Positions 468 to 61,979 of a DNA stretch of 64,000 nt are shown here, piece after piece (within the stretch, counting starts at the first letter, position 1; each line of letters opens with the position of its first letter). This DNA comes from Bilabrum cf. latius. Its lineage: Eukaryota. A program made the translations under genes and the position numbers. The stretch lies in NCBI GenBank assembly GCA_965178125.1, contig OZ237775.1:186001-250000 (forward strand). The letters run 5' to 3'. The notes beneath the pieces were generated by a model that worked only from the letters and a program-made list of their open reading frames with translations, was not told the DNA's origin and did no database searches.

Positions 468-3400
468 GCGAGCTTAAGGTACGGGGGACGTTTGCGGCTG
501 AGACTGCGCTGTTCACAGCAGAAGACCCCAACTACAGCTTCAAAGCGCAGGATGTGAGCCGAGTCTCAACCAAATACATACTGATTGCAGCGACACAATC
601 GCCAATTTTTGCTATGTTGCCCGCTGTGGGTTGAACTGCTCGCAGGTATCGGCAGCCCATGGGTACTCTGAGGCATACGCTACAAAGCTGTGGAAAGCGG
701 CGTCTAGTAGTGATATCGGCCAAGCGTGGGAAGGCATAGTTGACACTTGGACAGCGGGTGTACTGCGCGGCATGGGCTTCCAGACAGCGGTGCAGCCTCG
801 CGGCGGGGTCGTGGCTCTGCTGCGTGGCCCAGGGGGTGGCGCAGACACGGACTCTATCGTACTGAGCGCATTCGAGCCTCGTGCGTGCTGGTCTCTTGGA
901 CGAGGCAGCAACAGCACGCACCACGGTGGGCCGGCTGCATCCCTCGTGGACTACGCGTGGAGCGGCAACGGCAGGACTGTCTGCTCGCTGCGGCATTAGT
1001 ACGGTTCAAGCACAGCCGCTGCTGGCGGCGATGCTTCTCACCCGCCAATCATCCGCTGCACGCAAAATACGGCGGGACTCTTCGTCCTGCTCGCCTCCCT
1101 GCAGCGCATTGCAGCGTCCCCATGGCGGGCCAAAGACGTTGTGGTGGCTATCCTGCCGCCCCCAGGTCACTCGTCACACCTCGCGCCGCGGTGCGGGGCT
1201 GCCGGCAGAGGCGTACGCGGCGAGAGCAGACGCGCGCATCTACCCCTCACTCGTCACACCGCTGACCCGTCGCTTCTCCTTCGTCGTCGCGCCCGACAGC
1301 TCGCCTCGCTGCTGTCGGTCTCCGCACCCCCCCCTGCTGCTGCTGCTGCTGCATCGCGCGGGGGCGATAACCGGAACAAGCCCGGGCCGCACCTGCCTCC
1401 CTCGATGAGGCTATCCGCGGCACCCACGTCCGGGGTGGCGCTCGCTTGGCCTTGGGGCGGCGCCGCGCGCGGCATGGCGGTGGTTCCGCAGGGCCTGGGC
1501 AGCGGATCGGCCTCGGCCGACATGGACCTGTTGCACAAGCTGGTGCAGGACATCGCCGAGCCTGCTGTGCCCAGGGCCAGGGCAGTCGGTGCGGGGAGGG
1601 GCGTGGGCGGTGGACTGGCGGGGGTGGGAGGTGGGGCTGGTCGCGGGAGTGATTTCGCCAAGAAGGGCAAGGGTAAGGGCAAGGGAGGCCGCGCGCGGAT
1701 TGGGTACGGGCGCGGGGCCACGCCTGCCCCGGGCACGGTGGTCGCTGGATCGGATCATGGATCGGATCATGGGTAGGGGGCTGCTCGGTCAATGATGACG
1801 AGTGCGGGCGCCCTTGTGCTGGACTGCGGCAGGTGCCAGGTGCCTGCAGGTCGAGCAGGCGAGAGAGGAGGGAAGGAGGGGTCGGGTGAAGACAGCGTCC
1901 AGAGACAGTGGAGGCAGGGCATGGTGGTGTCAGTCGGTGACCTGAGTACCGCAGGGGGTGGTCAAAGCGGGGATGGGACTGCGCTACAGGCTTGGATGGA
2001 GGGCGGGTGTATCCGGATGTGTGGCGGAAGAACAACAGCAGCAGCAGCAGCAGAGACAGGGACAGGGACAGGGGCTGGGACCGGGGCGGTGGGAGAGGGC
2101 GTAGAGGCGGGCTGGAATCAAACGGAGGTATTCTCCGATCTAGAGGCGGAGGCAGATCCACGCGCGTTGGCAAGCCCTCAGGAAGCAGCACATACTCGCA
2201 GCAGAGGTATCGGTCGAGAGCTAGAGCAACACGGAGAAGTCTCAATGACGACAACGACGACGACGACGACTGCACCCGGTGGACTGGCAGTGGGGCTCTG
2301 GGCTCTTGTATCCTCCCTTCGGCATGCGTGGCTAGGCGCCGCGCAATGGTCCGGGCTGGTTCCGCACGCGGCCAGCTGGCAGCTGCGGACCAGCGCCGAG
2401 GGTTTGCAGGCCAGTTGGGTGCATGGTGACCCGGGTCAGCTTGGCCACACATCGGCGGCTGCGTTCGCGTCAGGACGCATCCAGTGCCCCGTAGGTAGCG
2501 GGAGGCACCGCATGCCCTCCGTTTTGGATAATTGGGCTCCCGGGTTCGAGCCCCGTAGCGCCCCGCCCCTGGATCTCGATCGCATCGCCACGGTGCAGTG
2601 CGACCAATTCCGCAGAACAGCCGCGGAGGGTGCTCACCTGCACAGACAGGCCGACAGGGGCATGGGTCTTCTTCCTGCGGTGTCAAGGAATATCCCAGCA
2701 GGGAGGTGGGACGGGGGCAGCAGTGCCATGCACCCGCTCCTCGCCAGCGACGCTGCCGCCGCTGTGATCGCGCCCTTCCTCACGCATGGCGTGGATCTCG
2801 TCGGGATCGCCGCCGATGGTGTGACGAGTAGTATTACCCGCGGCGACCGGGCGGGCACCACAGGCAATCGGCTATCCCTGGAGCTGCGCTGCTCTCCCCT
2901 TGCGACCAACTCGACCGGAGCAGTTGCTCCGTGCTCGCCCATGGATGCCGATCTCGCGTACATCGCGGGGGAGTCCGGCAAGCAGCAGGTGCGGGCTGTG
3001 GGCCGCACCGTCGTGCAGTACTTTCGCATGCTGAACGGGCTGGAGGAGCGGCCCCACGCCGGGCAGCCCTTCTACCTACTGTCTGGGCCCAGTCGGTTCG
3101 TGGGTCAAAGCGAGGTGGTGCTGTTGGTGGCGGTGGCAGTGGTGCCTCTGCTGCTGGCGGCGCTGCTTCATGCAGGGCGTGCATCCAAGGGCAGGGCCGG
3201 GTAGGGGTGCGGCAATGGGCTGCACCTTGGGCGCGCCGTGTGTGTCGGTCTGCTGCCCCTGCTGCTTGTGGCGTGGTGCATGCATCGCATTGCGGTGCGG
3301 TACGTGCCCCAGGAACTTGGAGTTGCAACCGGGATGGCAGCGGGGCGACTGCATTCATCATCGTTGGTTGGGAGCGTCGCTGGCCCTGGCATGGGCGAGG

Positions 3401-6117
3401 GCGAGGGCGAGGGTGGTCTTCATATGTACGACCCTATCGGCGAGAATGACCACGATGGGGAGGAGCGCAAGGAGGAGGAAGAAGGAGCGAGGAGCGCGTT
3501 GTTTGTCTCCACTGCCACCCTGCCGTTCAGTGGAATCTCACCTGGCATCGCATGGACCGAGCATACAGCCAGCGCCAGCACCAGCACCGCGATGGATGGA
3601 GGTGCACCCGCAGCCATGGGGCCCGGCGTGCTGTCCCTCTTGGTGGAGACGGGGGGGGCCGCTGCAGCGGCTGGCCTGGCTTCGCTGCGAAGCGCGTCTG
3701 CCATGCTAGGCGAATTACTGCGAGTACTCGTGTCCGGCAGGGCGGTTGCAACCTCGAGAATGGGGATGGGCGCGGTGATGCGGCTGGCAGGGGCCGGGTG
3801 CGACCTCGGGTCCGGTGAGCCGGTTGCAACCCAGTTGCGACCGGCTGTCGCTGGCATGCTGGGCCGCGATTGGAGGCGGCTCTGCCGGCTCGCTAGCACA
3901 GCTGGTGTGACGAGCGTCGATTCCACCGGTGTGACGAGTGGGTGGCTTGCCCTGGTTGAGACGCTCTCGGCCCGGGCCATTCTGGCTCAGGATCCGCTGC
4001 TCCCGCCGGTTGCAACCGCGGGAGGTGCGCTTGTCGCGTGGGTGGCGTGGGCGGCGGATGGGGTGGCATGGCTCGCCGGGGGCGCGGACCCGGTGCATGC
4101 CCCTCGAAATGTATCGGTTGAGCTGCTGTTTGGCGCTAGCCTGGTGTCCTGCTCTGCCGTCTGCCTCCTGGTTGCAACCGCGGTGCTGCAGCCGGGGCTG
4201 GCGGTGGCGGCCGACCTGAGCTGGGCTTGGGTGGTGCAGTCCTCTGCGCGGAGCAGGGAGCTGAGGCTGTCGCGTGAGGCATTAGATCGGATCGATCGGA
4301 GCACATGGAAGGGAGGCGCGGGAGGGGACTAGAGCGGAGCACAGGCCCAGACCCCCCGTACGCTGCTCCGGCAGATCTTGTGGGAGATCATGCCCGACCC
4401 TCGGCTGGCCGACGTGCTCCTTCACCGCCGAGCAGCTGCTTTGATCCGATCCGTGGAGTCGGTTGCGTTCGCCAGAGACCGTTTGGGTGCCGTGGCAGGC
4501 GCGGATCACCGGCCGCTCATGGTCCCTCCCGGGGTGCGGCAAGCGGCGCGAGATGCACTGGACCGGGGTTTTGCTCCCCCCCGGCATGGCGCATAGGGTG
4601 CCAAGGACACGGCATCGTCCGAGACAATCGATGCAGCGAGCAAAACAGGGGGAAGGGATGACCCACACGGGTCTCAGACGGGTGCATCAGCCGCAACTCG
4701 CCGCAGGGATGCCGCGACAGCACCAGAGCCGGTCCATGAAGCAGTCCCACTCTCCGGCTAGGATGCACTGTATGACGAGGGCCGTGCCCTGGTAGAGGAG
4801 GGCATCGCTGAGGGGTTTGCGGGTGCGATCGACCCTGATACATTCGATGAGTGGAGGCTTGAGCTGCCATCGAGACTGGATCTCGGGAATGGGCTGGAGG
4901 ACGAGGAGGAGGAGGAGGTGGCGGGGCTGACCAACGCTGGTGGTGCTGGTAGAGTCGGCAAGGGCGGTGGGAAGCTTGTCGGGCAATGGGGTGTGACGAG
5001 TGCAGCGGGTGCCGTGGCTCTGGGCCTGGAAGAGCGTGAGCGGGCTGTGGGCGGGTGGGTGTGGAGTTTGCTGCATCTCGGGGCGGAGGAGGCACCTGCG
5101 AGATAGTGTGCTGGGCGAGACCAAGCGAGCGAAGAAGATGCGGAAGCAAAGGCGATCAAGGAGGGGCGAGACGGTGAGAGTGGATCACAGAAGGACTCCG
5201 GCTCGGACGGGGAGAGGCAAGGCAAAGGGCCCTGGAGCGGTCTGCGCTCGTCACATCTCACTGGGATGGCCAACTCCAGGGTGATGAGTGCACTGGCTCT
5301 CCCTCAGCCGATCGGAGCAGAAGCGGGGAATGCCTCCGCAGTGACGTCAGCGGACCTTGCGGCCTGGTCGCAAGCGGGCGCGATGCAGCGGATTCTCGGG
5401 AAGGCGCAGCCAGGGAACAAATCGAATGCAGGGAACAGTGGACGTGCAGGGGTCAGCGGAACCAGCGGAACGGCTGCACCGGCCTCCGTCACCGCGCTGT
5501 GGCAAGCGGCTGTGGTTCTGCTTTGTGCCCTCCTGGGGACCAACACTCTCCTGCACCTGCCGATCGGAGTCGTGTGGGTGCCCTGGATCGCACTCGTCAC
5601 AGCGGTAGGGACGCTGGCTGTGTACGGCGGCTGCGGCTGCCGCTGCTGCGGCTGCTGCCGACGACCGGGGCTTGGCCGGCAGGCTCACCACGGCCCGGGG
5701 ATCCACCGTGTGACGAGTGTGCTGCGTGTGCTTGCGGCAGGGCTCTGTGCATCCCCAGTGACCGCCGTGCTACTGGTGGGCGCGGCCACCGGGCTGCTCC
5801 ACGCCCTGGATGCTGCCGCTGGCAGCGGGTGCGGGGTCGGGGCGGCGGGGGACTCCGTGGTGCCTGCTGCCTCCCGAGAGTCCGCGCTTGCTCCGATCCT
5901 GTGCCTCGCTTCAAAGATGAGTGTCGGTGACGGCATGTGGAGCGGTGTGACGAGTGTGCTTGAGGGGATCGGTGCGCTCTCCCAGCGGGCCTCTAGTGCG
6001 GCATCGGGCGAATCGGGCGAGGAGGCCTTGCTGATGGCTCCGTGGAGGGTAGTCTGCTGGGGGCTCCTGCCTCTTCTAGTGGGAGCGGCGCAAGTTGTTC
6101 TGATTGCAGTTGTGTGA
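468..6117 (+). CDS. GPAA1: GPI transamidase subunit GPAA1/Gaa1-like, greatly expanded (~1,850 aa); 5'-most exon unresolved
   Basis: ORF pieces 631, 1141, 1792, 3238, 4378, 4918 and 5266 share one frame, separated only by TAG (997, 1774, 3202, 4330, 4594, 4759, 5104); ends TGA 6115-6117. Gaa1 motifs: 'GTFAAETAL' (cf. TYFSENAL), 'LLRGPGGGADTDSIVLSA', 'PWRAKDVVV', 'NMDLL'-like 'DMDLL', 'GRTVVQYFRMLNGLEERPHAGQPFYLL', then multiple TM segments. Inferred exon 468-553 and intron 554-645 (GTGAGC...CTCGCAG). Confidence 0.8.
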
Positions 6118-6609: not shown

Positions 6610-9600
6610 ATGGAGCGCGGGTTGGCACACGCCTTTATAGTTACAGCTGTTATTCTCTAGTTGAGTACATGCAGTCTAGCTAGCAACGCAAATTTATTGC
6701 GGCCGGTGCTGCAGCGCCTCTGGCTGTCTACTTCGCGAGCCTCCGCGTCCAGCATTTGGAAAACTGCTCGTGGCTGGAGTCAAGGACAATCAGCACTATT
6801 ACCATGCGGTGCTGATCCACCAGGGGGTGCCGATTCTACTGCAGTCCCACCAGTTTCGTGGCCTGGAATCCAGTGCGTGTCGGGCAGTGGCGGAAACTGG
6901 TCGCTCCACGCCATCGATCTGGAAGGGTTTTAGCTGGCCGGCAGCTTGCCAGATGATAGCAGCCTTTGGTTTTCGTTGGGAGATGCGAACGTTCGCATGA
7001 TTTCGATGCAGGATAGCCCAGACCTTACGGGATCCGTGCCAGCTGCGATTTGCTAGCTCGCGTCCAGTCCTCGCGTGCTCGCCTTGGCTCGAAACGGCTT
7101 GGAAGGGGCTCTGCCAGAGTGCCTGGGCCGGGACTTATCAAGCCTTGCTGTGCTAGATCTCTCAAGTAACCGCCTTACCGGGCCCGTTGCGCTGCTCGGT
7201 GCCATTGCGCCCATGGCAAACCTCAAGGTGCTGCGGCTGCAGGGCAACCTCATCAGGGGCCCGTTGTTCCCCGCTGCGACCAACACCCCGGCGCTGAGGC
7301 AGCTCCTCGCTCACGACAACTACCTGACGGGACCGGTCCCTCCCCTCCCGCCGAACCTGGAGGAACTTTCGCTGCACGGCAACTTGCTTGCGGGCCCCCT
7401 CCCCGCCCTGCCAGAGAGCCGGTAGGGCGGGGGTGCCGTCAGCCTGCAGGTTGCAACCGTGACAGCGGGCAACCGATTCGCGTGCGACGCTTGCTACGGC
7501 GCTGCGTCCCCCGAGGATTGTTCCCTGGCCAGCGAAGGTTCGCCCATCCCCGAGGGCTGGGCGCGGGCGGACCCATTCGCGGCAAGGTACTGCGGCGCCT
7601 CGGGAGCCTCTGACGTCACTGAAGAGGCGAAGCGGGATGCTGCGGCATCCACTGACCCGGCTAGCGTCGGTCTTGTTCCCTGGCGATCCGCACGAACGTT
7701 CGGTTCCAGCGCCACGTGGGGGGTGTCGGCGCTTGTGCTGCTTGGCGTGTGGCTGGTGGCTGGGGCCCTTCGGCTGTGGGCGTGCGGGTGGACCAGGCTG
7801 AGGCTGGGAAACAGCCTGGACACATTTTCGGCCCTGCTGGTGCTGGCGCAGGGCCTAGATGTCGGTGTGGGCACTCTGGGGTAGGGTGCATCGCGCGGTG
7901 GTGCGGGCGCTCCATCGGGGGCGAGAGCGGGCAGTGGCGGCGGCGGCGGCCGGGTCGTGTCGAACCCTTTGGGCGACGTGGCCGGCCGCAGGCACACTCT
8001 CAAGAAGCAGGCATCAGTGATCGTCAGGCATAGCGATAGTGCCCTTGGGCAGCTCGAGGCAGATGCTCTAGAGGGGGGTGCGGTGGAGCTCTCTGCCTCG
8101 AGGCGGAGGCTGTCCGTGTCAAGGGCGGTGGAGCTCGAGGAGGAGATCGAGTCGGCGGGGTGCATCGCACGGTGCTGCGTGCCCTGCCTCGCTCTGTCGC
8201 ACTTTGGAGGGTCATGCTGCTACAGAATCTCACCCGGGTGCCACTACATCGTGTGCTGCGGGTGCTGCACGGGTGCAGACGATCAGCGGAAATAGCAGCT
8301 GCAGGATCTGAGGAAGGGTAGGAGGCTTGACCTGCCCTCCCCCAGGTCATCACCGGGATCTAGCCCGGGCTCGAGTCCTGGATCCAGTCCTGATTTTGGG
8401 CCCGCTGTGGGGGGCTGGCCGGCTGGTGCACCGCTTGGCGCAACGCCGGTGCTGGACGGGCAGGGGCCGGGGCTGGGCAGGGCCAGTGCCAGTCCCGGTG
8501 CTGGTCATAGTGCCAGTGCCGGGGGTGGGGCCGGTGCTGTCGCTGCCCCTGTGGAGGGCAATGCGGATAACGACATCGACGACGATGACGACGACAAGAT
8601 CGGAGCGGAGGACGCGAGGCACCTCCCGCCCGCCTCCCAGCTGGCAGTGCCTAAGGAAGGCCCCAAGCAAGGCGCGAAGACAGTGGCCAGCAGGCTGACG
8701 CTGGCCCTGCAGCGTTCCTCGGACTCCGAGGCACAGCAGAGGCGCGAGACCTTGTCGCTGATGGGGCAGGGCAGGCACGCGCAGGAGCAGGCAGAGAGAA
8801 AGAGAGCGGAGAGGAGGCTTGAGAAGAGCAAACAGGACCTGGACGGACTGTCCGGAGTGCTGCTGCAGGCTTCAAGGGCCGGTGCAGTGGCCCTTTCGGC
8901 ACAAGATCCCGCAGCAGCGAGGATCGTCCTGCTGGAGCTCTTCGCGGTACTGACCATGGTGCTTGCGGCTCTCATGGTGTACCTCGTGTTCATGCCGGCA
9001 CTGTTCGGGCTGCAGTCTGCGGCGGGGTCGGAGGGGCCGTGGACCACGTTCCACCACTCCACCACAGTGGTGCAGGTCCCGACCAATCTCATCAATCGCT
9101 GGGGAGCGTGGGGCTACAACGCCAGCTAGGTTACCCTGCCGGAAGATGGCGGCTCAAGGTCGTACGGCCGCCCCCTTTTGAACGAGGCCGGGCCTGAGGA
9201 CGAGGATGCCTAGCTCGGATTCGGCGGCGAGTGGGTGATCTGGCAGGCTACGGTGGCGGTGACTGTGGGCCTGTGGCTGTTTTGCTACATTTTGTGCATG
9301 CAGGCCCATGCTACCAGGCAGGGAGTGCTTGCTGGGCTGAGTCGAGTCCGGTACATGGTGTCACTCGGTGACAAGGGTCCTGCCGGGAGGCTGGTGCTGA
9401 GCAGCTCTCTAGGGGAGGGGGACAGGGTGCATGCAGTCAGAGTACTCCGAGGACCGCCCTTCGTGGAGATTGGGGCACCGTTCGGCAGGAAGCACGCAAG
9501 AGGGGTGGTCAAAGTGGAAGAGGGGCTCAGGAGAGGCAGCGGGGGGTCAACTGAAGCCGACGCCAAGGGACCCCCACGGCGGGGGGTACCCCCGGGGAAG

Positions 9601-27188: not shown

Positions 27189-28041
27189 ATGGCTTCAGCA
27201 GCAGAATCTCGTCCAGGCAAGCCATTTAAACTACCAACATGCGTAGTCAGTTCGGTAAGTGCGGCAACATCCGGATAACGCGGGGCTCCCTGCATGTGCA
27301 CCGTCATATTTTGGTGTGCCTAACCCTCTCTAGCAGAAAGCCGCTGGTCGTGAAGTCAATGTGTCCCTAACAAAGTATGAGGATAGACTATACATAGTTG
27401 CCACGGCCATTGGACGTGTTGGCTCTCTTGTAAGTTGAAGTGTCGTGCAAACGCATGGCAGCACTCGGCGCTCTGCCACGTGAAATTGCAGTCGGTTCAC
27501 AGTGCCTCCATCGCAGTACCATGTAACATCTAGAACAATGATCACGCCCCAAGGTCCGCGAACTGCATTCGACGTTGCTCTGCAGCTTGGAGATCGCTCA
27601 GACGAGCGCGGCGCTCTCATTGCTCGCCGGCTTGGCGAGATGGTTGCAGCGGCCACCGGGCTGCCTCTATTGCTCGCTTTAGGACTACCGCCCATGGATA
27701 CAGAGGAGCTGGAAGCTGCCGGCCGGGATCCTGTCATGGAGCTCGCCGCGGCGCTTTCGTCTGCTGCACTACCCGCAGCATCAAGAGCACCTGCACCAAC
27801 CGCAGCCAGTGCGAGGGCTGGGGATGGGGTGCTGCTCAAAGCAGTCACAGCAGCCGAAACATCATCTCATGCAAGTGCGGGGAGTGCTGCAGTCGAGGCC
27901 AGCGCAGGACCTGCCTCTGCCTCTGTCCCTGCCCCGGTCCCTGCCCCTGTCACTGCTGCTGGAAGTGTGGAGGAGATGGTGGCAGTGGCAGCTGCCATCG
28001 TTGGGGCCGTGGGTCGCAACCTGGGAAAAGTGGCTGTGTGA
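27189..28041 (+). CDS. PSMG3: Proteasome assembly chaperone 3 (PAC3)-like
   Basis: Exons 27189-27254, 27334-27429 and 27517-28041 with GTAAGT donors, all phase 0. The peptide 'VSLTKYEDRLYIVATAIGRVGSL|YHV...FDVALQLGDRSDERGALIARRL...LLLALGL' matches the PAC3 pattern from memory. Ends TGA. Confidence 0.65.
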
Positions 28042-28390
28042 CGAGTGTGATCGTGGCAAAAGTGCATGCTGGCGACCCCTGGGGTGGCCGTGCGATCACG
28101 CTGTGAACACATGCAGCCCCCGCGCCCTGGGGTTGTGGTGTGTGTCTCACGCGTCGACTCAGGAGGCGGATGCTCAACGCTGGCATCTTACGCAGGAACA
28201 TAGTCCAAGCTTGCAAGATCTATGTGATATAAGCAGCCGGCTGGGTAAGCGCTAGCAGTGGCTAGCAGGGGCCGGTGCACCGATAATCGAGCGGTCTACA
28301 TCATCCGGTCACGGGTGCCGTATAAGAGGCCGAACGGACAATGGGGTAAATGATGCACCAGTGGTAGCCAGTCGGGCGCAGGCCAACTGC

Positions 28391-32840: not shown

Positions 32841-33560
32841 ATGGAATAGGTAATTTGAGAAATGCTAGGAGGAGGCGGCTAGATTCAGGTGTGTGCTGCT
32901 ATGCAAGGAACGCATCAACGGTAGCTTCGCAGTCCTTGGAATTTGGACCAATTACTCCTTTGTTAGGTCTTGACATAGGCGGCTCGTTAGCGAAACTTGT
33001 CGTGTTTCGGCCCGATGTGGCAGTGAGCAGCAATAATCCGCCCGAGTATCCAGATAGAAACGCGATTGAGTTCTTGGACAGGCTTATCCTTCGCATGCCG
33101 AGGCACCCTGGACACGAACCCAAGCTGCTTCTGCGACGAGACGGCGGTACGTATCACTTCCTCCGGTTCGAGACGCGATGGGTGCCCGACGTAATCCGGG
33201 TTGCCAACGAAGTGGGGTTTGATCCGGAGCTCGGGCCCGTGGTGGCCGCCACGGGAGGGGGCGCCTACAAGTACGCAGATATGCTCCTGGAGGGACTCGG
33301 CGTGCGGTTGCAACCTGTGGACGAGATGCAGGCCACCGTGGAGGGCTACAGGTACTTTGCTGGCCTGGCCGAGCAGCAGGCGTCGGCCAGGGTGGGATGG
33401 GGCAGGGTGGGGAGCCACAGCCACAGCCACAGCCACAGCCATAGTAGCAGTGGCACCAGTGGCAGCAGCAGTGGCACCGCTCAAGCCAAGGAGGGAAGCG
33501 CTGCCTCTCATGCGGCCGATCGTGGCAGTGTCAGAGGCAGAGGCAGAGGCAGAGGCAGTG

Positions 33561-33593
<33 letters not shown>

Positions 33594-34666
33594 GGGGCAC
33601 TGTTGGGCAGGAGGTGCAGGCGGAGGCAGAGGACGACCATGCGGGGTCGGGATCGGACTCGGAATCAGAAATGTACACGTACAGCCTGCAGCAGGACCCC
33701 GCTGGAGAGAAGGTTCCTTTCGACTTCAGCGAAGCGAGGCGAAGCAACCGCGGGGTGCTGGGGGGAGGCGTGGAGGCAGTGAACGGAGGCACCTACACTG
33801 GGCTGGGCAGGGAACCAGCGCTGTTGGTGAGCATGGGCAGCGGGATATCTTTGATCCGGGTGGAGCCTGGGGAAGACGGCAAGCTGGAGCGCGTGAACGG
33901 GTGCAGCATCGGGGGGGGTACCTACTGGGGTCTGGTGCGGCTGCTGACCAACTTCGAGACATTCGACGAATCGATCGAGGCGGCGCAGCGAGGGAACAAC
34001 GAGAAGGTGGCCATGCTGGTGAAGGACATATACGGCGGGTCTTACGCCACGCTTGGGCTGCCTGGGGACATTGTAGCGTGCGATTTCGGCAAGGTGGCAG
34101 TGAGCCCTCTGCCCCATGGGGGGGCTTGGAAGCACCTCCCACGGCGAGCTGCAGAGGAGAGGGGGGGGGAGGAGGAGGAGCGTGAAATTGAGGATCGTGA
34201 GGGTGATGGTCTGGGTGGTAAGGCCGGAAGCGGCAGCGTGTGGGGGCATGGTGCCTCGCGGATCGCGCACGGTGCGAGGCGCCTTGCTGTGAAGGGGAAA
34301 GGGAGTGGGAGTGGGAGTGGGAGTGGGCCGACTCGTGGTGGGAATGAGGATGGTGTGACGAGTGATTCGTCCGAGGAGGAGCCCGTGACGGAGGACGATC
34401 TCGCGAGAGGGGTGCTTGTGCTCGTGCTGAACAACACCGCGCAGGTAGCCTGGCAGACAGCGAAGGAACAGAACGTTCGCCGTGTTCTTTTCGTGGGTTC
34501 GTTTCTTCGCGAGGGGCTGATGATGCGCGTGCTGACCTCTGCTCTCAAGTTCTGGAGCGGGGGCTCGCTGCGGGCTGGCTTCATGCGGCACGAGGGTTAC
34601 TTTGGTGCGATGGGGGCGCTGCTGGAGGCGAGGGAGATGGTGTCACCCGAAAGAGGCAGGAGGTGA
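32841..34666 (+). CDS. PANK: Type II (eukaryotic, fumble-family) pantothenate kinase with low-complexity insertions
   Basis: 'GLDIGGSLAKLV', 'ATGGGAYKY', 'VDEMQATVEG', 'LLVSMGSGIS', 'GCSIGGGTYWGL', 'MLVKDIYGG', 'FMRHEGYFGAMGA'; TGA 34664-34666. A micro first exon ATG GAA TAG (32841-32849) plus intron 32850-32932 is tentative. Confidence 0.9.
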
Positions 34667-34853: not shown

Positions 34854-37800
34854 ATGTTATCCCGGATCTCAATCGCAGCCACTGCCGCAGCGATACAGAT
34901 TTGGATCTTCGTGTCGGCGCGTCACGCCGAGGCGTCACTGTTTGCCACCGTACGGCTCGGAGCCAGCTCCCCGGAATTTCCGTGCTCAGCGAGAAGTGCG
35001 TTTTCGTTCCAACCTGTCGGCTCAAAGGCCACCGTCAGCCAGAAGGGCGGCAGCTGCAGTGTTGAACCGGACCTGCCTGGCATGTACACAGTCTCAACGG
35101 GCGGCAATCCTGCTCAAGAAGTCACAATCATGGGGATGAATATTAGTGATGTGCTACCCCATGTCATCAGCAGCTCAACGTTTCCAGCCGGGAGCAGCTT
35201 GGTGGACAGCGACGCACTCCACGACTACTGGGGTTTGCAACAGCCACCAAGTTAGCAGTGCAATGTTGCAGTTGGTGCATCAGGAGGTTTAGAATGGCAG
35301 AGTGTATCGCAGTACGATAGAGCTCACCATGGTCGGCACAGTGAGGATCCACAGGCGCAATCACAGCTGCGCGGGGCTCAAGTAGCCACATCGGGCGCAC
35401 CTGCTACGACGCAGTGCTCATCGCTGCGCAGCACTCGACCCCCCGGCTCCCAGCAAATGAGCTTCTTCAAAGGCCCGGTACTCATCAAACTAAGTGGCTT
35501 GGAACTGGTCGATGCGTCTTCCAATATTTCTGTCCACATAGTGCCGGACCGCCCGTCGCGAGCCGCGGGAGACGACGAGGGCCCGCCCTGCGGCCTCACC
35601 GTTGAGGTGGCGAGTGTGACGAGTGCGCAGGACAAGCTGCAGGTCCGTCTGCTAGCCCGCCAATTCGTAGACGAGCAGGCACGCGTGCTATGGCAGTCTT
35701 CCGTCCCCGCAGGGTCCATGATCCAATCGCCCAGGGGGCGAGCCACGGCCGCAGTCTCAGGAGCACTGAACATCCAGCTGCGCGCGGATGCAAAGAACGC
35801 GAGCCTGCAAGTGACATCCCAGACGAGCAGCGGTGCCAGCTCTGCGTACAGCTACAGCTCCGATCAGATACCTCACGGCCTCGCCTGGCAGACACTGGGG
35901 ATGACCTCTGCGGCCCGCCCCGATCTGCCCCAGATCGTCCTCGGCCGCATGGAGGGAGGGTACGACGGGGGGAGCGCGGTGCTGCTGGGAGCGAGCACAG
36001 CATCGCCTTCAACGAACGTTCGTGTGGGTTCGTCTGGGGAACAAGATGCGGCGCTGGCCCGGCTGGGGTCAATCTCGATCGGGTGGGACATGCCTGCCAA
36101 CTACCTGCCCGGCGTGCTCGCACCGTACACCGACGTGGAGCAGGCCGAACCAAGGGTGGACATGGGGTCATACCACGACGAAAAGACCACCGCGCCTGTC
36201 CCCGCCTCCAGAGGAATGCTTGACGCCACCCTGCCTCCCTTCGAGGCGGATCCATCGGGGAAGAGCGACTCGACACTCGCCATCCAGGCTGCCATCCAGT
36301 TCGCCATGCAGAACGCCATGGCGCTGTGGCTCCCAGCAGGCAACTACACGGTGACCCGGAGCCTCATTGCCTTTGAATACCCGAGGTACACGGCCGGCGG
36401 CGTGGCCGCCTTCAACGGGACGGACAACTACTGTTGGAGCAGGTACAACGCCCTTCACATGAGGGGCCCTTCGGGAGCTCCCAGGCTATCCGCCCATGGG
36501 AGGGCCAGGATCGTCGTCCCACCCAACACGCCCTTCTTCTCCTCTTCTTCACAGGAGCCCCGGACTGAAAGTCCTCGATCGTCCAACGGGCCAGTGCCCT
36601 CGGCCGGTGCCGCGGTGATCAACTTCAACACGATCAACGCGCTGGGCTAGTACCAGACCAACATCGGCATGAACCAGGTGCTGCAGAGCGTGGACATAGT
36701 GGTGGGGCAAGGCAACGATAAGGCCGCCGGCGTGTTTCTTCAGGCGGCGCAGGGCAGCGGCGCCGAGGACGTTGGGGTGGATCTGGGGCCCGACGGGCTG
36801 GTGGGCCTGCTGGGGGGCGCTGGCAGCGGGGGGGCGCACCACGGAATCACCGTGAAAGGGGGCAAGATCGGGTTCGACCTGCGGGAGGCGCAGCCCGCAC
36901 CCACGCTCAGTGGGGCCATAGCCGTGGGATAGCAGTGCGCCTCGCTGCTGTACCTGGGCAAAGGGGCCTTGTCTGTGGTTGGCTTCAACTTCACGATGGC
37001 ACCTGATGCCGCCGGGGCCCAGGCTGTTGGTAGCGCGCTGAGCTACTTTGATGCAAATGCTGGAGACAAGGTGCGACGAGGACCGTTGGGCACGACGGAC
37101 ATGTCTGAGTGTGAAGCGGCGGCATAGGTATCTGGCATCACGGGTCACGTGGCAGGTCATGGTGAGTTGAGAACCGATGAGATTGCCGAAAGCACGGAGG
37201 ACATACAAGCTGGCGGGCTTGGGCTTGGGCGGACCAGCGCCTACTACACCGGTCTCATCGCTCTTGTGGACGGGGTGATTGAGACCCCTGCAGGGGCGGC
37301 GTGCGTGTCCACGGGCCGCCCCATCACGATGGAGAACGTGTGGACCGCGGGGTGCGAGACCATCGCAGAGGGCAGCGCGGCAGATCTTCCCGTCAAGGAG
37401 CAGGCATGGGCAGTGCGCAGGAACCAATCCAGAGCCAATGCGCAGCATGAGGGGAGTGAAGCCGCCAAGTGGGTGGTGCTGAACAGGGTCACCGCAAGCG
37501 TCGATACCCCCCCCACCCAGGGGTACACCTACCCGTCGCCTGTGTACAGCAATGGGTAGAGGACGGTCCCAACGCCAGGCAGCATACCGCAGGAGTCGAA
37601 CACGCATGAGGCACCCGCGGGCAGCAGCCCTCCATCGGACATCATCACTCGTCACACCTGGAGCACGGACTGGCCCTCCGTTGAGTCGCAGGGCGTCATA
37701 TTCGCCGAGGACCGCGGCGCGAAGGGGGACGGATACACGGACGACCACGGCGTGCTGCAGGGGCTGCTCGACGGGCCCGGGAATCCAGTCGTTGCCCTCA

Positions 37801-38921
37801 CTCGAGGCAGGTACATCGTGTCCAAGCCACTCGTCACACCGCCCGGGGCGGCCCTGGTTGGCCTGACGAGGCACCTGACGGTGATCAGCCCGCCGGCCCG
37901 AGGGATGAGCGCGCCCGCGGGGCAGGTGCAGCCCACGGTGGTGCTAGGCGCTACTCCGGGCAGCACGGTGCGCGCACCCGGAGGCACATCGACGGTAGCA
38001 CCGCAACGCGATGCACCCAGCGTGCTCTCCCACCTCACCGTGGAGACCCCCCTGCACCTGACCAACGTGACCGGCATCACCGCCGTGGGCCCCTTCGAGT
38101 CAAGACAGAGCTACACCCACAGGAAGAACGTCTGCGGGTCCGACTGGTCTGCACCTTGCCAGAGGCTCTGGAATGAGACCTTGCGGGCCACCAGCCCTCA
38201 GGTGGTGTTTTCGGGTGGGGCTGCGCAGGGGAGGTGGTGGACGTTTTTCCTTGAGGACTACATCCTCGAGGCGCTGAACGTGGGGCCGGCCAGCAAGGTG
38301 CAGCCCACTGCGGGGCACGGGGGACCGGTGGAAGCAACGTACCGCCACGTACTCATCGAAAACGCCAACGAAGGTTCGCTGCGGTTCTACCAGTTTAACA
38401 CGGAGCACGCACGGTCTGACGCAAACGCCGAGATCAGGAACAGCAGCAACGTGACCATGTACTCCCTGAAAACAGAGGGCAACGCATGCGTGCTGTGGAT
38501 CAGGAACTCAACGGACATAACCATGTTTGGGTCGGGGGGCAACGCAGTTGCCCTGCCACTGAGCGCCAACTACTCGCAGGGGTACACCCAGGGGATTCCG
38601 CCCTCCCTCTACAGGGTGGACGAAGGTTCGTCGAGGGTTCGCCTGGTGGTCCCCACGGACCAGGGGAGAACCAAGGGGGGCAGTCCCTCCGAGTTTCCGG
38701 GGGAGGGGTTCGATCCCAGGACGTGGAGCATGGTGACCTGGAGCGGCAACCTGTCATCGCCCGCTGATGGCACCCACTGGCACGCGGGCTCGGGCGGGGC
38801 GGTCTCGGGTTAGGGCAATCAAGGGCAGATGCACCACGGTGGTGATGTGATGGGCAGCACGGGAGGCGGGTGGCATTTTTCAAAGCCGCTCGACCGACCG
38901 GGGCTGTGGAAATGGGACTGA
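34854..38921 (+). CDS. Secreted beta-helix glycoside hydrolase (GH55/pectate_lyase_3-like, two beta-helix starts; ~1,355 aa)
   Basis: Signal-like N-terminus; 'MLDATLPPFEADPSGKSDSTLAIQAAI...LWLPAGNYTVT' and 'AEDRGAKGDGYTDDHGVLQ...RGRYIVSKPL'; one frame through TAGs 35253, 36648, 36930, 37125, 37557 and 38811; TGA 38919-38921. Confidence 0.7.
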
Positions 38922-39015
38922 AACGCTGCAGGCAGGATCGTGGGGTGCAAACCGGAACACTCGGTGCCTCTACCTCCAGATTTCCGGGCATTATTGGCGC
39001 TGGTAGTCAGGGTTT

Positions 39016-40754: not shown

Positions 40755-40834
40755 TTGTTCGGCTCCCCAGTGACGGATTACCGGAAGCAGTCGAGCAATT
40801 CGCCGCAATTCAAGTCTTCACCACAATTTGAAGC

Positions 40835-43800
40835 ATGGGCCGCGCTGGGCATCAGAATCATATCGTATTGCTTGCTATGATAGGCCTGATGCATTGCCAA
40901 GCTGCACGTGGTTTCTCACCTGCAACTTTCGTCCGGCAGCAGCACCACGAGCTCACCAACGGGCATGCATTCGACCAATACGCTTCAGTCGGTCGAGCAC
41001 TTTTGAATGGCCTCGCTTAGCAACCCCTGTGCAATAACCCGACAGAATCGCTAGGTGCTCCAGTGTCTCATGCGGATTGCTAGCTGCCGTTGCTGGCAAT
41101 CTCGGACCAAATTCACACTCCGCGTGCTTGGCTGGATGATGAGCGCACAAGAGTGTTTTCGATCCCAGTTTCGCATCTTGGAACTAGTAATGACACCGCG
41201 CTTCCTCGCCATGCGGGGTCGACTGACGGTTTGATGTACACGATGAACAGCTGGTTCGATTCTCGCGGCGGAGCCCGTCGCGTTGGAGGCAAGACGGTCT
41301 GGTACGCAAGCAGGATTCGATTCCTCATCGCGATTGATTCAATTCTGGGGGCATCTATCACTGCTGGAAGAACCACCGGAACCTCTCGCCAGTCGATCAA
41401 GGAGCAAGGGGGACCGCCCGGGAACAGCCGCATCGACTGGCCTTGGGGAGGCGACTGGAGGGTGGAGTGCGCTCTGATGCCCGAGCCGCCATCATCGCCA
41501 CCAGGCATGTCCAGCGGCGCGCAGCCCACTCGAGATCAGTTCAGGTCACTGGAATGGACACAAGGGTGGATCGCTTCGGACTACCTGAACCGGTACGTGG
41601 CGGAGCGCAAGCCGTGGGTGTCCCACTCACAGCTAGAGGTGCAATGCCCCGACCTGGCTGCAGGCGAACATGGTGTGACGAGCGTGGTCCCACAGGCCGG
41701 GGCAGCTGATTCTGATGGGAGCCCGAGCCGCCTGAATCGGCTGGGTATGTTCCGCTTCGTGCTGCCTGGCGGCGCCGCGCAGATCGTGTCAGACCCCGCC
41801 ATCGTGCAGGTGCCTGGTTTGGGGTGGTTCGGCAGCACAGGCGCATCGCACGGTGATGTTGGTGCTGATGCTGGCACTAGCCCCGGCCGAGATGAGACAG
41901 ACGGGGCACCCAGCACGAGCAAACCAGGCCCGCCAGCAGCAGCGGATGGAACAACAGCGGAGGGAACAACAGCGGAGGGAACAACAGCGGAGGGAACAAC
42001 AGCGGAGGGAGGCACTGCCCCACCTGCTCCCGAGGCGCAGCAGCCCACTGGAGACCAGCCCGGCCCCGGCCCCGGCTCCAGTCCAAGCCCCAGCTCAGCC
42101 CCTACCCCTGGCAGCGGTGCGGTCCTGCGGCCCTGGTCCAGGGAACACCACGAGGACAAGCGCGGGAGGCGAGCGTCTGATAGTGTGACGAGTGCGAAAC
42201 CCCTGGTGTGCGTTTTGCTGGGCAAGCTCTACGGTCAGGTCGCCCTGATGGATCAATTTTTGGACGCGAGGGACTCTCTGGGAATCGATCTCGCGCTCGT
42301 GTACGCGGCACCAGACCTGTTCCTCACCGACCCGCGGGCGTGGGCGGCGCTCCGTCAGGCCGCCGAGGAGAAATGGCTCCGAGTTGTTCTCTGGCCGCCG
42401 CCCTCGGTGTACGCCTCCATGCTGGCAAGGAAGCAGGCCGTGTTCATCGGCGCGCAGATCCACGCCAACCTAGATGCAGTGCTGAGGATGAGGCATGCCA
42501 CGCACTGGCTGTACAACGGAGACCCTGACGAAAGCATGGTGGTCGCGGGGAACAGTCGCAGCCGCAGCCGCGCTGCTTCGGAACTCTCAACCGCCCCCGC
42601 CCCCCCAGGAAGCGGTGGGCAGCCGGACCCGCCCACGCACCAGGCGGGCTGGTCCTCTTCCCTTAGGCCCCTCCTCGCCTCGTTGCTGCCCAGGGGGGAG
42701 GGGCCCATCGCCAGGTTCGTGCCCAGGAGCGCACTCGTCACATCGCAGCGCGGACCTGCCTCCCGCGCGATGAAGTACCCCCCCGGGACGTGCTTCAGCC
42801 GCATCCAGCGGCAGTGGGAGGAGGATACATGGAGAAAAGGGGCCTATTGCGTGCAGGATAGCGCAGGTGCGGGTACCGCGGCTGGATCGAGCCGGCAGCT
42901 GCAGGGAGTTGTACCTTCTACCGGTGGCAGTGGTAGGGGTGGCAGCGATTTGTCAATTTCTGATGGTGATGGCACGGCACCCGCCCGGCCAAGGTCTAGG
43001 TTAGCCGGTGCCAGGATGACAGGTGTGACGAATGCGGAGGATACAGCCCCATACAGTGCCTTAGACGAGGGCCTGGATAAGATCCGCGGGACGCACCCTT
43101 CTCTAGGCGCTGCTGCCCAGGTGCACACGCGAGTGGATGCAGCGTCAGCACCGGGTCATGACCCTGCCACGCAGGAAGTTCGCCTGCCCTCTGGGGGTGA
43201 TTTCACCGAGAATTCTATATCTCCGATGGGAGAGGAGCAAATCAAGCAGCAGTACTTTGCGTCATACAGTCGGGCGGCATGCGGGCAGGTGTTGGTAGAG
43301 GCGTACGACGTTCTGGTGGATTGCGCAGAGAAGCCATCAGGTGGTGATGGTGGTGGTGCATCAGCAACAGCTCGGGTTCTTCGCGATGGAGATCGCAGAA
43401 AATCCAGTCGCATAGGAATGTCCGCGTCCGAGTCGGCATCACATGCGCAAGCCGCGCCAAACAATGGTGTGCGGCAGCTAGAATCAGGCGATATCGGCAG
43501 CCCTGCTGCCCGCGCTTGCGACGGGGCTTCGTATCCGTTGAGTGATCCGGCCGGCGAGCTGTTCCGCGCAGCTACCCCTGACTCGCCCCCCTGGTCCAGC
43601 GGAAAGGTACCCGTCTCCGGATGGGTCGAATTCACCAAGCCCATCGTGAGGCCGGCGGTCGTGGACGCTGCGGGGGTGCACAGGATGTCTCGCTTCCGAT
43701 GGCAGCCCGACGATGATACGGATGGGATCCAGTGGGCAGGGCTTGCGCAGCAAGGGGCTGCACCCTCCGCCGGTGATGGCTATGAGGCAGCGCTACCGCC

Positions 43801-58730: not shown

Positions 58731-59251
58731 GCTGTCTGTCTCTTTGCCTTCCCTGCTGTGTGAAGTGATTCGACACGCGCCCAGCATGGCATCCGGATTC
58801 CACCTGCTTACTTCCGGTATTCTTGCACGAGGTTGTACGAAGATGCGCCCGGTTCCCTGGCCATTCTGATACGTTGAACGCAGACAACGGGGTCCTATTT
58901 GGATAATATAGACGTACCCTGTGTGATATGGTTGCGAAGTATGTCTTCAACCTTGTGCTGCGGCCCATCAGCCGCCCGCAACGTGAACTGCAACTGCAAC
59001 ACAACACAAGCCACTATCGGACTGTGTGTTGAATTATCACGCGAACCACCAGAAAAAGCATCCAATCTGTAGATGTAAACTCTTTGAAATGCTCAGTGGT
59101 TTGCTTGTAAATGTGTGCAGCGACTTCTTTCAGCCTTTCCCTAGACCTCACTTCTCCCCACGGCACACCCAAGCGTTCATGGTCACTGATATGATAGATG
59201 CTACTAGAATAACTCGCATGCATGTTCTTGCTTGCAATCGCACTCAGGCTA

Positions 59252-60527
59252 TCAGCCGAGCTCGTCCTCGGCCGTGGCGGTAGCATCCTCGGTCCCCGCC
59301 TCGATCTCCCCATCCGCCGCCCCGCTGAGGCCCTTTCGCACCAGGAGCAGCAGCCTGGTCCTCCAAGGGCTCAGCTTGGAGATCCGATCGTACTCGGCTA
59401 GCGCATCCACGAACCCCTGCGCGTTGCCCTTCTCCACCGCCTCCACCAGGTCGGCAAAGAGCCTGCCCTCTCGGCTCTCGGCGAACGTGTAGTCCAGGTC
59501 TCCGAATCGATCTAGGGCCTGCTTGGCAGCCACCACGTCGTTAAGAGCCAAGTAGCATATCCCCGCATCAAGGAGGTGTTCCTTGGCCTGGAACTTGAGA
59601 AGGGAGTTGTCCGCCCTCGCTGCTGCCACTGCCTCGTATGCCTCTGCCGACTCCTGGTACCTGCCGGCATTCGCGCCCAACTCTGCCCACTTGAGCTTGC
59701 ACTGGTTGGCGCTGCTCTCCGACCTGTCCCCCTCAAAGTACCCCATCGCCTTCTCGAAGTGGGACATGGCCTCCTCCCAGTTCTCCTCCTTCTCCAGTGC
59801 CTGCGCGAGCTGCTGGTGCATCTGGGCGGCCTGACGGAACTTGCCGTTGGACACCAATCGGGGGATGCACTGTGTCTCCAACACGGCCCCCGCCTTCTTG
59901 GGGTCCACGAACTTGAACATGTCCGCGGCGTTCTTGTACATGGCGCCAGCCGAGACGTCGTCCGAGAGGTTCAGGTACATCTGCGCCGCCTGGGAGTAGG
60001 CCTCACCCGCCTTGCCGTAGGCGCGCGCAGCTTTATACTGGTGCCCTGCCTGCGTGTAGGAATCGCTGGCTTCCGTGTACTTTTCCCTGCGGTGCCAGCA
60101 GCAGAGGCGAACAAGTTCCACAAGCAAATGCCACAGCTTCGAAGCATGCGCAACTACAGCGCATCGCGTGCATACGCAAACTAATTGAGAAAAATTTATA
60201 GTCTTACACAGAGCTAAACATAACGAATCGGTCTCTTGCAGAATTCCCCTGCGCTTGGATAGATGGACGGATTCGCAGCACGGCATAGAGCAGCGACGAT
60301 GCTAAACACGCAACGCGGTGATCAGCAAGGTTCTTATCATATTATACATGCCGGTACTGGTTCGTAACTTCGCGGGACTTCCAAGCGCGCATCCAGCAGA
60401 TAGCAAGCATGGTCGAACGGTCCTGAGACCCTCCAACACTTTCCCTCACTTCTTGCATCAGAGAGTCCCCCTTTGCCTCGAGCGGACTCCCTGTTCCACC
60501 TGATGGTGCACCTTTCACTCCAGCCAT
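59252..60527 (-). CDS. NAPA: Alpha-soluble NSF attachment protein (alpha-SNAP/Sec17), 317 aa
   Basis: Exons 60527-60450, 60248-60208 and 60086-59252 (954 nt, in frame); 'GKFRQAAQMHQQLA', 'SSANQCKLK', 'NSLLKFQAKEHLLDAGICYL', 'FAESREGRL', 'YDRISKLSPWRTRLLL'; ends TGA. Confidence 0.95.
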
Positions 60528-60637
60528 ATCAACGTGGTATGAGAAAATGGGCCGGAACCCTGCTGCAACTTGCTTTGGAATTCAATGCAGTGCACTTTTG
60601 AGAAAAATCTGTAATAATCGTGGACCCCGCAAACCCA

Positions 60638-61979
60638 TCACCGCCCAGCGCCTGCAGCAGCCCCCCCTTTGCTGGCAGCCTTCGCGTCTCTATCCTGGGC
60701 CTATCTTCTGTTCTTGTGCCTGTCGCTCGTCATCTTGAGCGCGGTGCTGCCGGCGGCCTCCTGCAGCCCTTGCAGCGATTTCGCCGCCCCGTACCGCAGC
60801 GCGTGAAACTGCTCCACCGACATGCTGAACGTGTGCAGCGCGCCCTCGGCGGTTGCAACTTCGGCGATCACCCTCGGCTTCATCACGCGGGAGGTGGCGC
60901 TGCTGGCGATGTCCACGTCAAGCCTCCAGCGGAACCGGGCCAGCGTGTCGAGCGTGGACGCGGCGCCGCTTGGCCCGGCCAGTGCCCTCTCCAGCGCTTT
61001 TCGTCGCTTGTTGCAGGCCGATGCCACAGCGGCAGCATAGGCCTTCGGGAACCTGCTCGCTTCCAAGTCGGACTGCACCTTCGAGTACTGCGTGTGACGA
61101 GTGCGCGGCGCGGCCGATGAAGGGACGGGGTGAGCATGAGGGGGCGAGCACGTGTGAGTGAGGGGGCGAGCACGTGTGAGTGAGGGGGCGAGCACGTGTG
61201 AGTGAGGGGGCACGGCAAGCGAGCAATCGGCAATAGCAGAGGATTACCAGTGCATGCCAACATGAAAATCTCCCATGCAAGTCCTAAGCGATTTGATTGA
61301 ATGCCCCTGCTTGCTTGTGCGCGCGGCAACTTGAAGGCCATTCTTTCTTTCTGTCCTCACCAGAGTGTGATCCCGAGTGGCCCTGCGGATGAGCTCGGCT
61401 GTCGCTGCCAGTGCGATCGCTCGCACCCCGCTGGACGAGCGGGTGTCTGGCGCGACCATATCTGATGACTCTGAAGCGGCTGTGGTGGCGCGAGCCAGCT
61501 CGCCCGCCGGGGCACTTGCTCCGACACTCGGTGCTCCGCTCGATCCATCGCCAGCGCCAGAGGCAGCTGCACTACTGCCGCCGCCAGTGCCAGAGAGCGA
61601 CGGCTCAACAAGACCGTCCTCCAAATGAACGTCTTGCGGAAGAGCAACAGCATCCAGAGGTACTCCCGCTTCCAGTGTGTCGCACGTCTCTTTCACGATA
61701 TCCGCTGCTGTCGAGCCGGCCTTGATCGCACGGAAGATTGCACCTGGTGCAGCGGATACTAAAGCAGAAGCAGGAGCAAAGAATGACTCTGCCGCTGCAG
61801 TTTTGGCCAACTTGGGCACTCCTGATTTTTCCTTCCCTTTCTTTCCCTGCGAAAGTAGATCGGAGTGGCACTTGCAGCAATGGAGGGTCCGGTATCAATA
61901 TGCGAAACAATGGCTCACTTTACCACCTTTGCAAACGCCTGTCGGATGAAGTGCACATAAAACTTACTTTGGCTGCCAT
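60638..61979 (-). CDS. COMMD5: COMM-domain protein, most like COMMD5 (Commander complex)
   Basis: Inferred exons 61979-61968, 61846-61361 and 61087-60638 (948 nt). COMM domain 'FRWRLDVDIASSATSRVMKP...EGALHTFSMSVEQFHALRYGAAK'. TAG 60701 then TGA 60638. Confidence 0.75.
61137..61211. repeat. 22-bp intronic tandem repeat, about 3.4 copies
   Basis: TGAGGGGGCGAGCACGTGTGAG x3 plus a partial copy, inside COMMD5 intron 2. Confidence 0.9.

Follow-up and report, generated by a model that had tools for sequence, protein, structure and literature searches.

Why should one and the same 12-letter DNA word recur again and again within the genes of a eukaryotic chromosome, on both strands and in more than one reading frame? 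The question is raised by a stretch of 64,000 bases from the GC-rich genome of the protist Bilabrum cf. latius (assembly GCA_965178125.1, contig OZ237775.1, positions 186,001 to 250,000), referred to here as the window, in which an original prediction made from the sequence alone had pointed out the highly repeated 12-mer GTGTGACGAGTG, which we designate m1. A second word, the palindrome GGTTGCAACC, designated m2, shares its behavior, and both are over-represented by factors of hundreds. Our favored explanation is that m1 and m2 are genome-signature words, which would arise through point substitutions and then be preserved by a directional force that acts on the DNA and is specific for their sequence; weighing everything presented below, we give this explanation an even chance of being right.

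All 14 exact copies of m1 that had been listed by eye could be recovered at their positions, 10 of them on the forward and 4 on the reverse strand. The mean number in 100 dinucleotide-preserving shuffles of the window is 0.02, with none of the 100 shuffles attaining 14, and an order-3 Markov model (60 simulations) again gives an expectation of 0.02. For m1-like sites with zero, one, two, and three mismatches we observed 14, 7, 7, and 48 occurrences against 0.02, 0.23, 4.9, and 48.8 expected under the Markov model; as the two- and three-mismatch classes are at background level, the excess is restricted to the exact and one-mismatch classes. Among the near-copies that had been proposed, seven indeed carry a single mismatch (Table 1), but the one at 20906 carries two. 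It had been put forward that the enrichment might vanish under a codon or Markov background; it survives the dinucleotide, the order-3 Markov, and the synonymous-codon backgrounds alike. A control with viral contigs, in which a 14-mer form of m1 picked 120 unrelated loci (1.08 Mb), yielded a second copy of m1 in none of these loci and two copies of m2 altogether, which underlines the rarity of 14 copies of m1 in 64 kb.

Comparison of the sequences around the copies revealed no relatedness among the flanks, and the information profile of the exact and one-off sites adds to the word only a single conserved position, the G immediately in front of it (15 of 21 sites). Because the flanks are unrelated and only this single additional base is conserved, m1 is a discrete unit of 12–13 bp and not the core of some longer repeat. 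No tandem m1 was found either: the word is absent from all 23 Tandem Repeats Finder rows of the window, and even the nearest pair, the one-off copy at 3905 and the exact copy at 3929, have starts 24 bases apart. The earlier suggestion of a telomere-like seed is thus unsupported.

In a k-mer scan of the window with tandem repeats masked, m1 ranks first and m2, often in the form CGGTTGCAACCG, ranks second. The palindrome m2 is found at 10 sites with 0.1 expected, and it is likewise a discrete unit, of 10–12 bp, behaving like m1. Two further words were noted in addition to these. A third palindrome, CGAACGTTCG, has four exact copies (6512-6521, 6986-6995, 7693-7702, and 36013-36022) against 0.03 expected, as well as half-sites at 32712 and 34472; it includes GAAnnTTC, which is similar to the dimer of a heat-shock element. 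The word CCAGGGAACAA or its complement occurs about six times (5410-5420, 7518-7528, 7673-7683, 11580-11590, 15552-15562, and 57294-57304); since at 57297 it forms part of conserved PHO4 coding sequence that is shared with a metagenomic relative (contig L001, see below), this word may be partly protein-driven.

To which molecule such words speak is best seen in the choice of codons, which we analyzed in 19 putative coding open reading frames (ORFs) comprising 10,011 codons. The tripeptide Val-Thr-Ser occurs 13 times with 3.2 occurrences expected from residue frequencies, and 7 of the 13 are spelled GTG-ACG-AGT (GTGACGAGT), a spelling whose fraction expected from codon usage is 0.017; by our arithmetic, the binomial chance of this is about 1e-9. 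Leu-Val-Thr is spelled by the reverse complement of m1 (CTCGTCACA) in all four of its occurrences (expected fraction 0.007), and Val-Ala-Thr is spelled GTT-GCA-ACC, as in m2 (GTTGCAACC), in 8 out of 11 (expected fraction 0.009). The words make use of rare codons in doing so: AGT accounts for 8.6% of serine codons, being the rarest of them, and GTT for 11.8% of valine codons. It should also be noted that the same DNA is read in quite different ways, m1 encoding Val-Thr-Ser seven times in sense orientation, Leu-Val-Thr twice, Thr-Arg-His-Thr twice, His-Ser-Ser-His once, and GTG-TGA, a valine followed by a stop, once. Given the fixed codon choice, the use of rare codons, and these different readings, m1 acts as a DNA-level signal and not as a peptide signal, in line with what had been proposed; the synonymous-codon test, the presence of both orientations, and the several frames all agree on this. 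A peptide motif, which would show conserved residues with free synonymous codons, unlike m1, was rejected.

The claim that m1 occurs in different frames is true, but understates how strongly one frame is preferred: all seven sense copies located inside a reading frame read Val-Thr-Ser, and the eighth sense copy, at 28036, is the one that supplies a stop codon. The latter had been described as lying across the stop codon of PSMG3, which fits its position at the end of ORF 27484-28041, where GTG-TGA closes a frame with a weak match to PAC3. The preference can be attributed to the alternatives, as m1 would encode a stop or Cys-Asp-Glu in the remaining sense frames and encodes His-rich tetrapeptides in the disfavored antisense frames. 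The positions and readings of all copies are given in Table 1.

Table 1. Copies of m1 and m2 in the window, with their readings and coverage by contigs of the independent runs X5 and X6 (see text), and examples of in-frame TAG codons
Feature	Positions	Strand or form	Reading and context
m1 exact	1168..1179	-	antisense in + ORF 502-6117, + frame HSSH; codon score negative in all frames, coding status unsure
m1 exact	1248..1259	-	antisense in + ORF 502-6117, + frame TRHT; codon score negative
m1 exact	3929..3940	+	sense, G-V-T-S
m1 exact	4991..5002	+	sense, G-V-T-S
m1 exact	5708..5719	+	sense, R-V-T-S
m1 exact	5945..5956	+	sense, G-V-T-S
m1 exact	28036..28047	+	GTG-TGA, last codon and stop of PAC3-like ORF 27484-28041; covered by X6 contig
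m1 exact	30207..30218	+	antisense in - ORF 28954-32577 (TSP1/EGF protein), L-V-T; covered by X5 and X6 contigs
m1 exact	34353..34364	+	sense, G-V-T-S, end of ~90-residue lineage-specific pantothenate kinase loop; covered by X5 contig
m1 exact	35614..35625	+	sense, S-V-T-S; covered by X5 contig
m1 exact	37646..37657	-	antisense in + ORF 34722-38921, T-R-H-T; covered by X5 contig
m1 exact	37828..37839	-	antisense, L-V-T, in pectate-lyase-like beta-helix domain; covered by X5 contig
m1 exact	42183..42194	+	sense, S-V-T-S; covered by X5 contig
m1 exact	61092..61103	+	sole copy outside long ORFs, between alpha-SNAP (-) and GH31 (+)
m1 one-mismatch	2819..2830	+	last base A; G-V-T-S
m1 one-mismatch	3905..3916	+	AGT -> AGC, synonymous; G-V-T-S
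m1 one-mismatch	5591..5602	-	first base C; antisense, L-V-T
m1 one-mismatch	31464..31475	-	ACG -> ACA, synonymous; sense in - gene, G-V-T-S
m1 one-mismatch	41673..41684	+	AGT -> AGC; G-V-T-S
m1 one-mismatch	42732..42743	-	first base A; antisense, L-V-T
m1 one-mismatch	43023..43034	+	AGT -> AAT; G-V-T-N
m2	3744..3753	palindrome	V-A-T
m2	3822..3831	palindrome	V-A-T
m2	4008..4017	palindrome	V-A-T
m2	4170..4179	palindrome	V-A-T
m2	7449..7458	palindrome	in + ORF 6283-11727
m2	30988..30997	palindrome	V-A-T in - gene; covered by X5 contig
m2	31077..31086	palindrome	G-C-N in - gene; covered by X5 contig
m2	31654..31663	palindrome	V-A-T in - gene; covered by X5 contig
m2	33306..33315	palindrome	R-L-Q-P, conserved N-terminal domain of pantothenate kinase
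m2	63092..63101	palindrome	V-A-T, variable loop of glucosidase II alpha (GH31)
In-frame TAG examples	3202-3204, 17067-17069, 21510-21512, 36648-36650		

With respect to the genes as a whole, m1 and m2 are as frequent inside ORFs as outside: 13 of 14 exact copies of m1 and all 10 of m2 fall in long ORFs, which span 80% of the window. Relative to these ORFs, eight copies of m1 are sense, five antisense, and one lies outside, and their relative positions along the ORFs range from 0.12 to 0.99. This distribution bears on the idea that the copies serve a transcription factor as regular promoter or enhancer sites and are found inside ORFs merely through the compactness of the genome, an idea that can draw on the TGACG core of m1, which resembles the half-sites of basic leucine zipper (bZIP) proteins, on very short intergenic spacers such as the 56 bp after the pantothenate kinase stop, and on the location of copy 61092 between divergent genes. 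However, there is no enrichment outside ORFs or upstream of genes, the copies lie anywhere along the ORFs, a single gene contains as many as six exact copies, and exactness over 12 bp exceeds that of the usual single transcription-factor site. A promoter site was rejected as a candidate on these grounds, and we give the promoter or enhancer explanation in general little credence.

The same blindness of the enrichment to coding status would be expected if a methyltransferase marked the word and repair restored deaminated or mismatched copies, leading to their accumulation. Such biased repair has been proposed for the cyanobacterial HIP1 (highly iterated palindrome 1), and very-short-patch repair is known in enterobacteria; the central CpG of m1 and the palindromic form of m2 and CGAACGTTCG, which they have in common with most methyltransferase sites, are also compatible with it. 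Nevertheless, repair of this kind acts on one-off copies only, and with 0.23 of these expected per window it would by itself be insufficient for 14 exact copies; a contiguous specificity of 12 bp is, in addition, unusual among the methyltransferases known to us. We therefore regard methylation-linked repair as improbable.

That the words reside in a eukaryotic genome is evident from a GT..AG intron and from the nature of the genes, which include those for a HECT ligase, alpha-SNAP, glucosidase II alpha (GH31), and pantothenate kinase (PanK). Further products of this compact window are a PHO4-type phosphate transporter, a TSP1/EGF protein, and GH28 and pectate-lyase-like proteins, and weak matches were obtained to Gaa1 (ORF 502-6117) and to PAC3 (ORF 27484-28041; E 6e-4, 20.4 bits vs a cut-off of 21.2). 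The spacers between long ORFs can be as short as 56 bases (34666-34722, from the PanK stop to the next ORF), 77 bases (32577-32654), and 166 bases (6117-6283). No Rfam matches and no tRNAs were found in the window. Two tandem arrays were noted: a 67-bp repeat at 28391-28667 (4.1 copies, 99% identity), which lies a short way downstream of the PAC3-like ORF, and an 18-bp repeat at 46392-46903 (about 28 copies), which on the reverse strand forms a Gln/Pro/His-rich run (QQPHAQ...) in ORF 44637-47081.

The extent of the ORFs depends on the genetic code. Of 21 stop-to-stop ORF ends that were examined, 19 are TAG with the same frame running on beyond it, and reading through TAG results in ORFs of 3586, 1871, 1814, 1399, 1247, 1207, and 1148 residues. 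Thirteen long ORFs contain 77 in-frame TAGs and terminate at TGA (12) or TAA (1), with off-frames rich in TGA. As the frames run on past TAG, carry it 77 times, and end at TGA or TAA, TAG is a sense codon here, which alters the gene models; it is with TAG read as sense that ORFs cover about 80% of the window. The three TAG positions that could be aligned to homologues (V/V/I and D/R/E in HECT, A/A/N in GH28) point to no single residue. Reassignments of UAG alone are rare. According to PMC5304391, UAG is read as leucine in a rhizarian and as glutamine in a fornicate.

Contigs from independent sequencing runs provide a view of the copies separate from the assembly itself. A test stretch of the window was found in seven public runs belonging to three studies, and positions 27500-47499 were compared with four runs. 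The runs X5, X6, and X7 come from other studies than run X1; their type is only guessed, X5 being "probably DNA," and none is recorded as RNA. The intron at 39811-40100, with GT..AG borders and a length of 290 bases in the GH28-like gene, is skipped cleanly by contigs of X5, X6, and X7, and because of this GT..AG joint these runs contain spliced RNA. A copy of m1 had been described earlier as lying beside an intron acceptor; the intron at 39811-40100 is the only confirmed one of the window and has no copy of m1. The long uninterrupted ORFs suggest that there are few introns elsewhere in the window. Contigs of X5 and X6 cover all seven exact copies of m1 in 27500-47499 with zero or one differing letters per contig and no gaps, and among the matches listed (40 of 57 contig rows for this region) there are no differences at the copies of m1. 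Run X1 additionally holds short contigs that differ by about 10%, at 44817-45521 and 40187-40210 (for example, 26 differences in 239 bases), which may derive from a second haplotype, from a paralogue, or from another, related organism in the sample.

These contigs also answer the concern, voiced with the original prediction, that the word might be an adapter or assembly artefact: all seven copies are present in contigs from two other studies with at most one differing letter each, copies leave reading frames open and favor one frame, and matches to the letters of m1 in the literature are unrelated primers only. An artefact of assembly, adapters, or polishing is almost certainly the wrong explanation. 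A splice signal was rejected as well, since the confirmed intron lacks a copy, the runs with the spliced joint pass unbroken through all seven copies, and the frames continue. Many short "joints" seen beside copies were not accepted as splicing; they have only 20–24 matching letters on one side and were read as foreign contigs sharing the word or low-complexity DNA.

The contigs that pass through the copies in the runs with the spliced joint, in which the copies are thus not removed as introns, could be cited for an element acting in RNA, such as a site for an RNA-binding protein in mRNA, of which the copies in DNA would be a secondary reflection. Eight of the 13 copies in ORFs are sense, and the shared frame of the seven in-frame sense copies is in agreement with this. 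Five of the 13 are antisense, however, a difference of eight to five that is not significant; the companion word m2, as a perfect palindrome, speaks for double-stranded DNA; avoidance of Cys, His, and stop accounts for the frame preference; and the RNA nature of X5–X7 is only guessed. Taken together, we find an RNA-level element very unlikely.

How the words came to be in their places can be judged where a copy lies in a conserved domain, which holds for one copy of each word. The copy of m1 at 37828 encodes, on the opposite strand, Pro-Leu-Val-Thr-Pro within the N-terminal turn of a pectate-lyase-like beta-helix, and its alignment with the two repeats of PDB 5m5z is free of gaps in and around the word. 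The copy of m2 at 33306 aligns without gaps with human PanK2 and two relatives (about 50% identity), in which SLRP and QLVP stand in place of the RLQP of the window. At these two testable sites the alignments indicate that the words occupy existing codons, that is, substitution and not insertion. Other comparisons were less informative: the two pectate-lyase-like segments are too diverged for a comparison as paralogues, a longer query with the beta-helix protein found no solved relative, and no homologue was found for the Gaa1-like segment 3205-4332, which is the richest in copies. For PHO4 there is no close relative in the protein collections, the best matches being 40–62% identical, and alpha-SNAP matches one protein at 98% and one at 73% identity. 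The metagenome contig L001 (3,506 bases) is syntenic with 57255-60748 of the window, with alpha-SNAP beside PHO4, a DNA identity of 76–78% in the genes, and a GC content of 52% compared with about 60%; it contains neither m1 nor m2, but ends short of the word sites of the window and is therefore uninformative on them.

The two gapless sites also bear on a process of tiny in-frame insertions, in which the word would be the footprint or payload of an event adding 12 bp, or four codons, surviving in stop-free frames and tolerant loops. The length of 12 is a multiple of three, the exactness of the copies suggests a recent origin, Val-Thr-Ser and Val-Ala-Thr are in excess, and several copies are found in lineage-specific or variable loops, among them m1 at 34353 in PanK and m2 at 63092 in GH31; the former loop, of about 90 residues, is missing from human PanK2, and in a relative with 73–78% identity the loop differs, is shorter, and lacks GVTS. 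Against insertion stand the copies at 37828 and 33306 in conserved domains, both gapless at the word, the failure to find target-site duplications, terminal repeats, or shared flanks, and the copy at 28036, which supplies the stop codon of a gene. We consider such insertions unlikely. A remnant of a transposon, a miniature inverted-repeat transposable element, or an introner was rejected on the lack of flanks, terminal repeats, and target-site duplications and on the gapless alignments at 37828 and 33306.

The copies are not evenly spread along the window, which confirms the earlier statement that they cluster in some genes. Of 23 GTGACGAG cores, 11 are located within 1170-6120 and none within 6121-20907, and in 4-kb bins the ratio of variance to mean is 2.26 for m1 (permutation p 0.003) and 2.19 for m2 (p 0.004). 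Both words cluster together (Spearman 0.69, p 0.003, 16 bins): the Gaa1-like ORF 502-6117 contains six exact copies of m1 and four of m2, and the two large ORFs in 6283-23408 (16 kb) contain no exact m1 and a single m2. This points to a regional factor common to two unrelated words, which we count in support of our favored explanation.

According to this explanation, the words would be introduced at any place in the chromosome whose sequence allows it, coding DNA in either orientation included, with copies arising through point substitution and a force acting on double-stranded DNA keeping them exact. Each word is probably recognized by a protein, possibly a dimer in the case of the palindrome m2 and a multi-module reader in the case of the asymmetric m1; alternatively, the palindrome m2 may point to a modification enzyme. 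Selection for a large number of binding sites, for example in chromatin organization, could constitute the force, or else a transmission bias, by which biased gene conversion or biased repair would favor the word over variants that differ in one letter. Which copies survive would then depend on purifying selection at the protein level, leaving those in frames with small tolerated residues and in variable loops. A bolder version, in which these are self-propagating words of a eukaryotic nuclear genome that spread by transmission bias and rewrite proteins even inside genes, seems to us possible but doubtful; one example of such a bias would be a word-binding protein that protects its site against breaks, with conversion then falling on the allele that is not bound.

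Several considerations weigh against genome-signature words maintained by a directional force. The genes in 6283-23408 without exact m1 are not obviously more constrained than others, and tolerance alone thus fails to explain the distribution. Most copies are found in variable, low-complexity, or lineage-specific segments, with the test for insertion limited to two sites, and the gene models used here consist of ORFs and codon bias, not of full transcripts. The ratio of 14 exact to 7 one-off copies would equally fit a recent burst of creation instead of ongoing maintenance, and by our arithmetic a single burst fitting this ratio would date to about 0.04 substitutions per site ago. Finally, we infer the mechanism by analogy, and what was read is one 64-kb window, from which any claim about the whole genome is an extrapolation.

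Exact words that are hyper-abundant, blind to coding status, and able to reshape proteins are the hallmark of a few bacterial systems, in which they are the sign of a molecular drive or of a recognition machinery devoted to them. If m1 and m2 extend genome-wide, they would offer a tractable case of a sequence-specific force that, in a eukaryote, prevails over both the preferred codons and the choice of amino acids. Behind this force might stand a gene-conversion drive, or else a chromatin or repair factor of a new class that acts at thousands of sites. Annotation of this genome must reckon with both the words and the reassignment of TAG.

Searches of the open-access literature for the letters of m1, m2, and CGAACGTTCG met with nothing beyond primers and CpG oligonucleotides, and no relevant nuclear-genome counterpart of highly iterated palindromes was found there, judged by title or abstract. 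Like m1, the Rickettsia palindromic elements are repeated DNA residing in protein-coding genes without breaking them; they differ in being insertions of 100–150 bp present as full-length copies, whereas the unit here has 12 bp, no shared flanks, and no insertion at the two testable sites. Dispersed words of 8–13 bp read by proteins are also known from eukaryotes, such as the 12-bp motif enriched on X (MEX) in the rex sites of Caenorhabditis elegans, the CTCF site, the PRDM9 13-mer, the plant telobox, and M26 of Schizosaccharomyces pombe, the last of which has a TGACG core in common with m1. In contrast to m1, these motifs are degenerate, occur at a much lower density, and lie mostly in non-coding DNA; to our knowledge none of them overrides codon choice or reshapes proteins, and PRDM9 motifs erode instead of accumulating. 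The bacterial Chi and KOPS (FtsK orienting polar sequences) are over-represented asymmetric 8-mers acting on DNA and tolerated in genes, as is the case for m1, but are strongly skewed by the direction of replication; the 10 forward and 4 reverse copies of m1 in one window give no basis for judging such polarity.

A closer likeness exists to HIP1 (GCGATCGC) of the cyanobacteria and to the uptake sequences of competent bacteria, and the earlier remark that the word is reminiscent of these but lies in a eukaryote is borne out by the intron and by the HECT, alpha-SNAP, GH31, and PanK genes. HIP1 resembles m2 and CGAACGTTCG in being a short palindrome that occurs in coding and non-coding DNA at a very high excess and against codon preference; it differs in its length of 8 bp, its bacterial hosts, and its tie to specific methyltransferases, and m1 is not palindromic. 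The uptake signal sequences (USS) of the Pasteurellaceae and the DNA uptake sequences (DUS) of the Neisseriaceae are, like m1, exact asymmetric words of 9–12 bp in hundreds-fold excess and in both orientations, which are common in genes, where they favor certain frames and tolerant segments and inflate the matching tripeptides. In Haemophilus, exact copies of the USS outnumber one-off copies by about two to one, similar to the 14:7 of m1. DUS often form inverted pairs in terminators, an arrangement not seen for m1, and we know of no eukaryotic counterpart to the bacterial drive, which consists of biased uptake followed by recombination. USS or DUS proper were rejected for m1, the host being a eukaryote and not a naturally competent bacterium. 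The pattern nevertheless fits the description of uptake-like and HIP-like words, with a vast excess, copies that are scattered singly amid unrelated flanks, in either orientation and in coding as well as non-coding DNA, and an override of codon choice, in a eukaryotic host that sets it apart from those bacterial systems.

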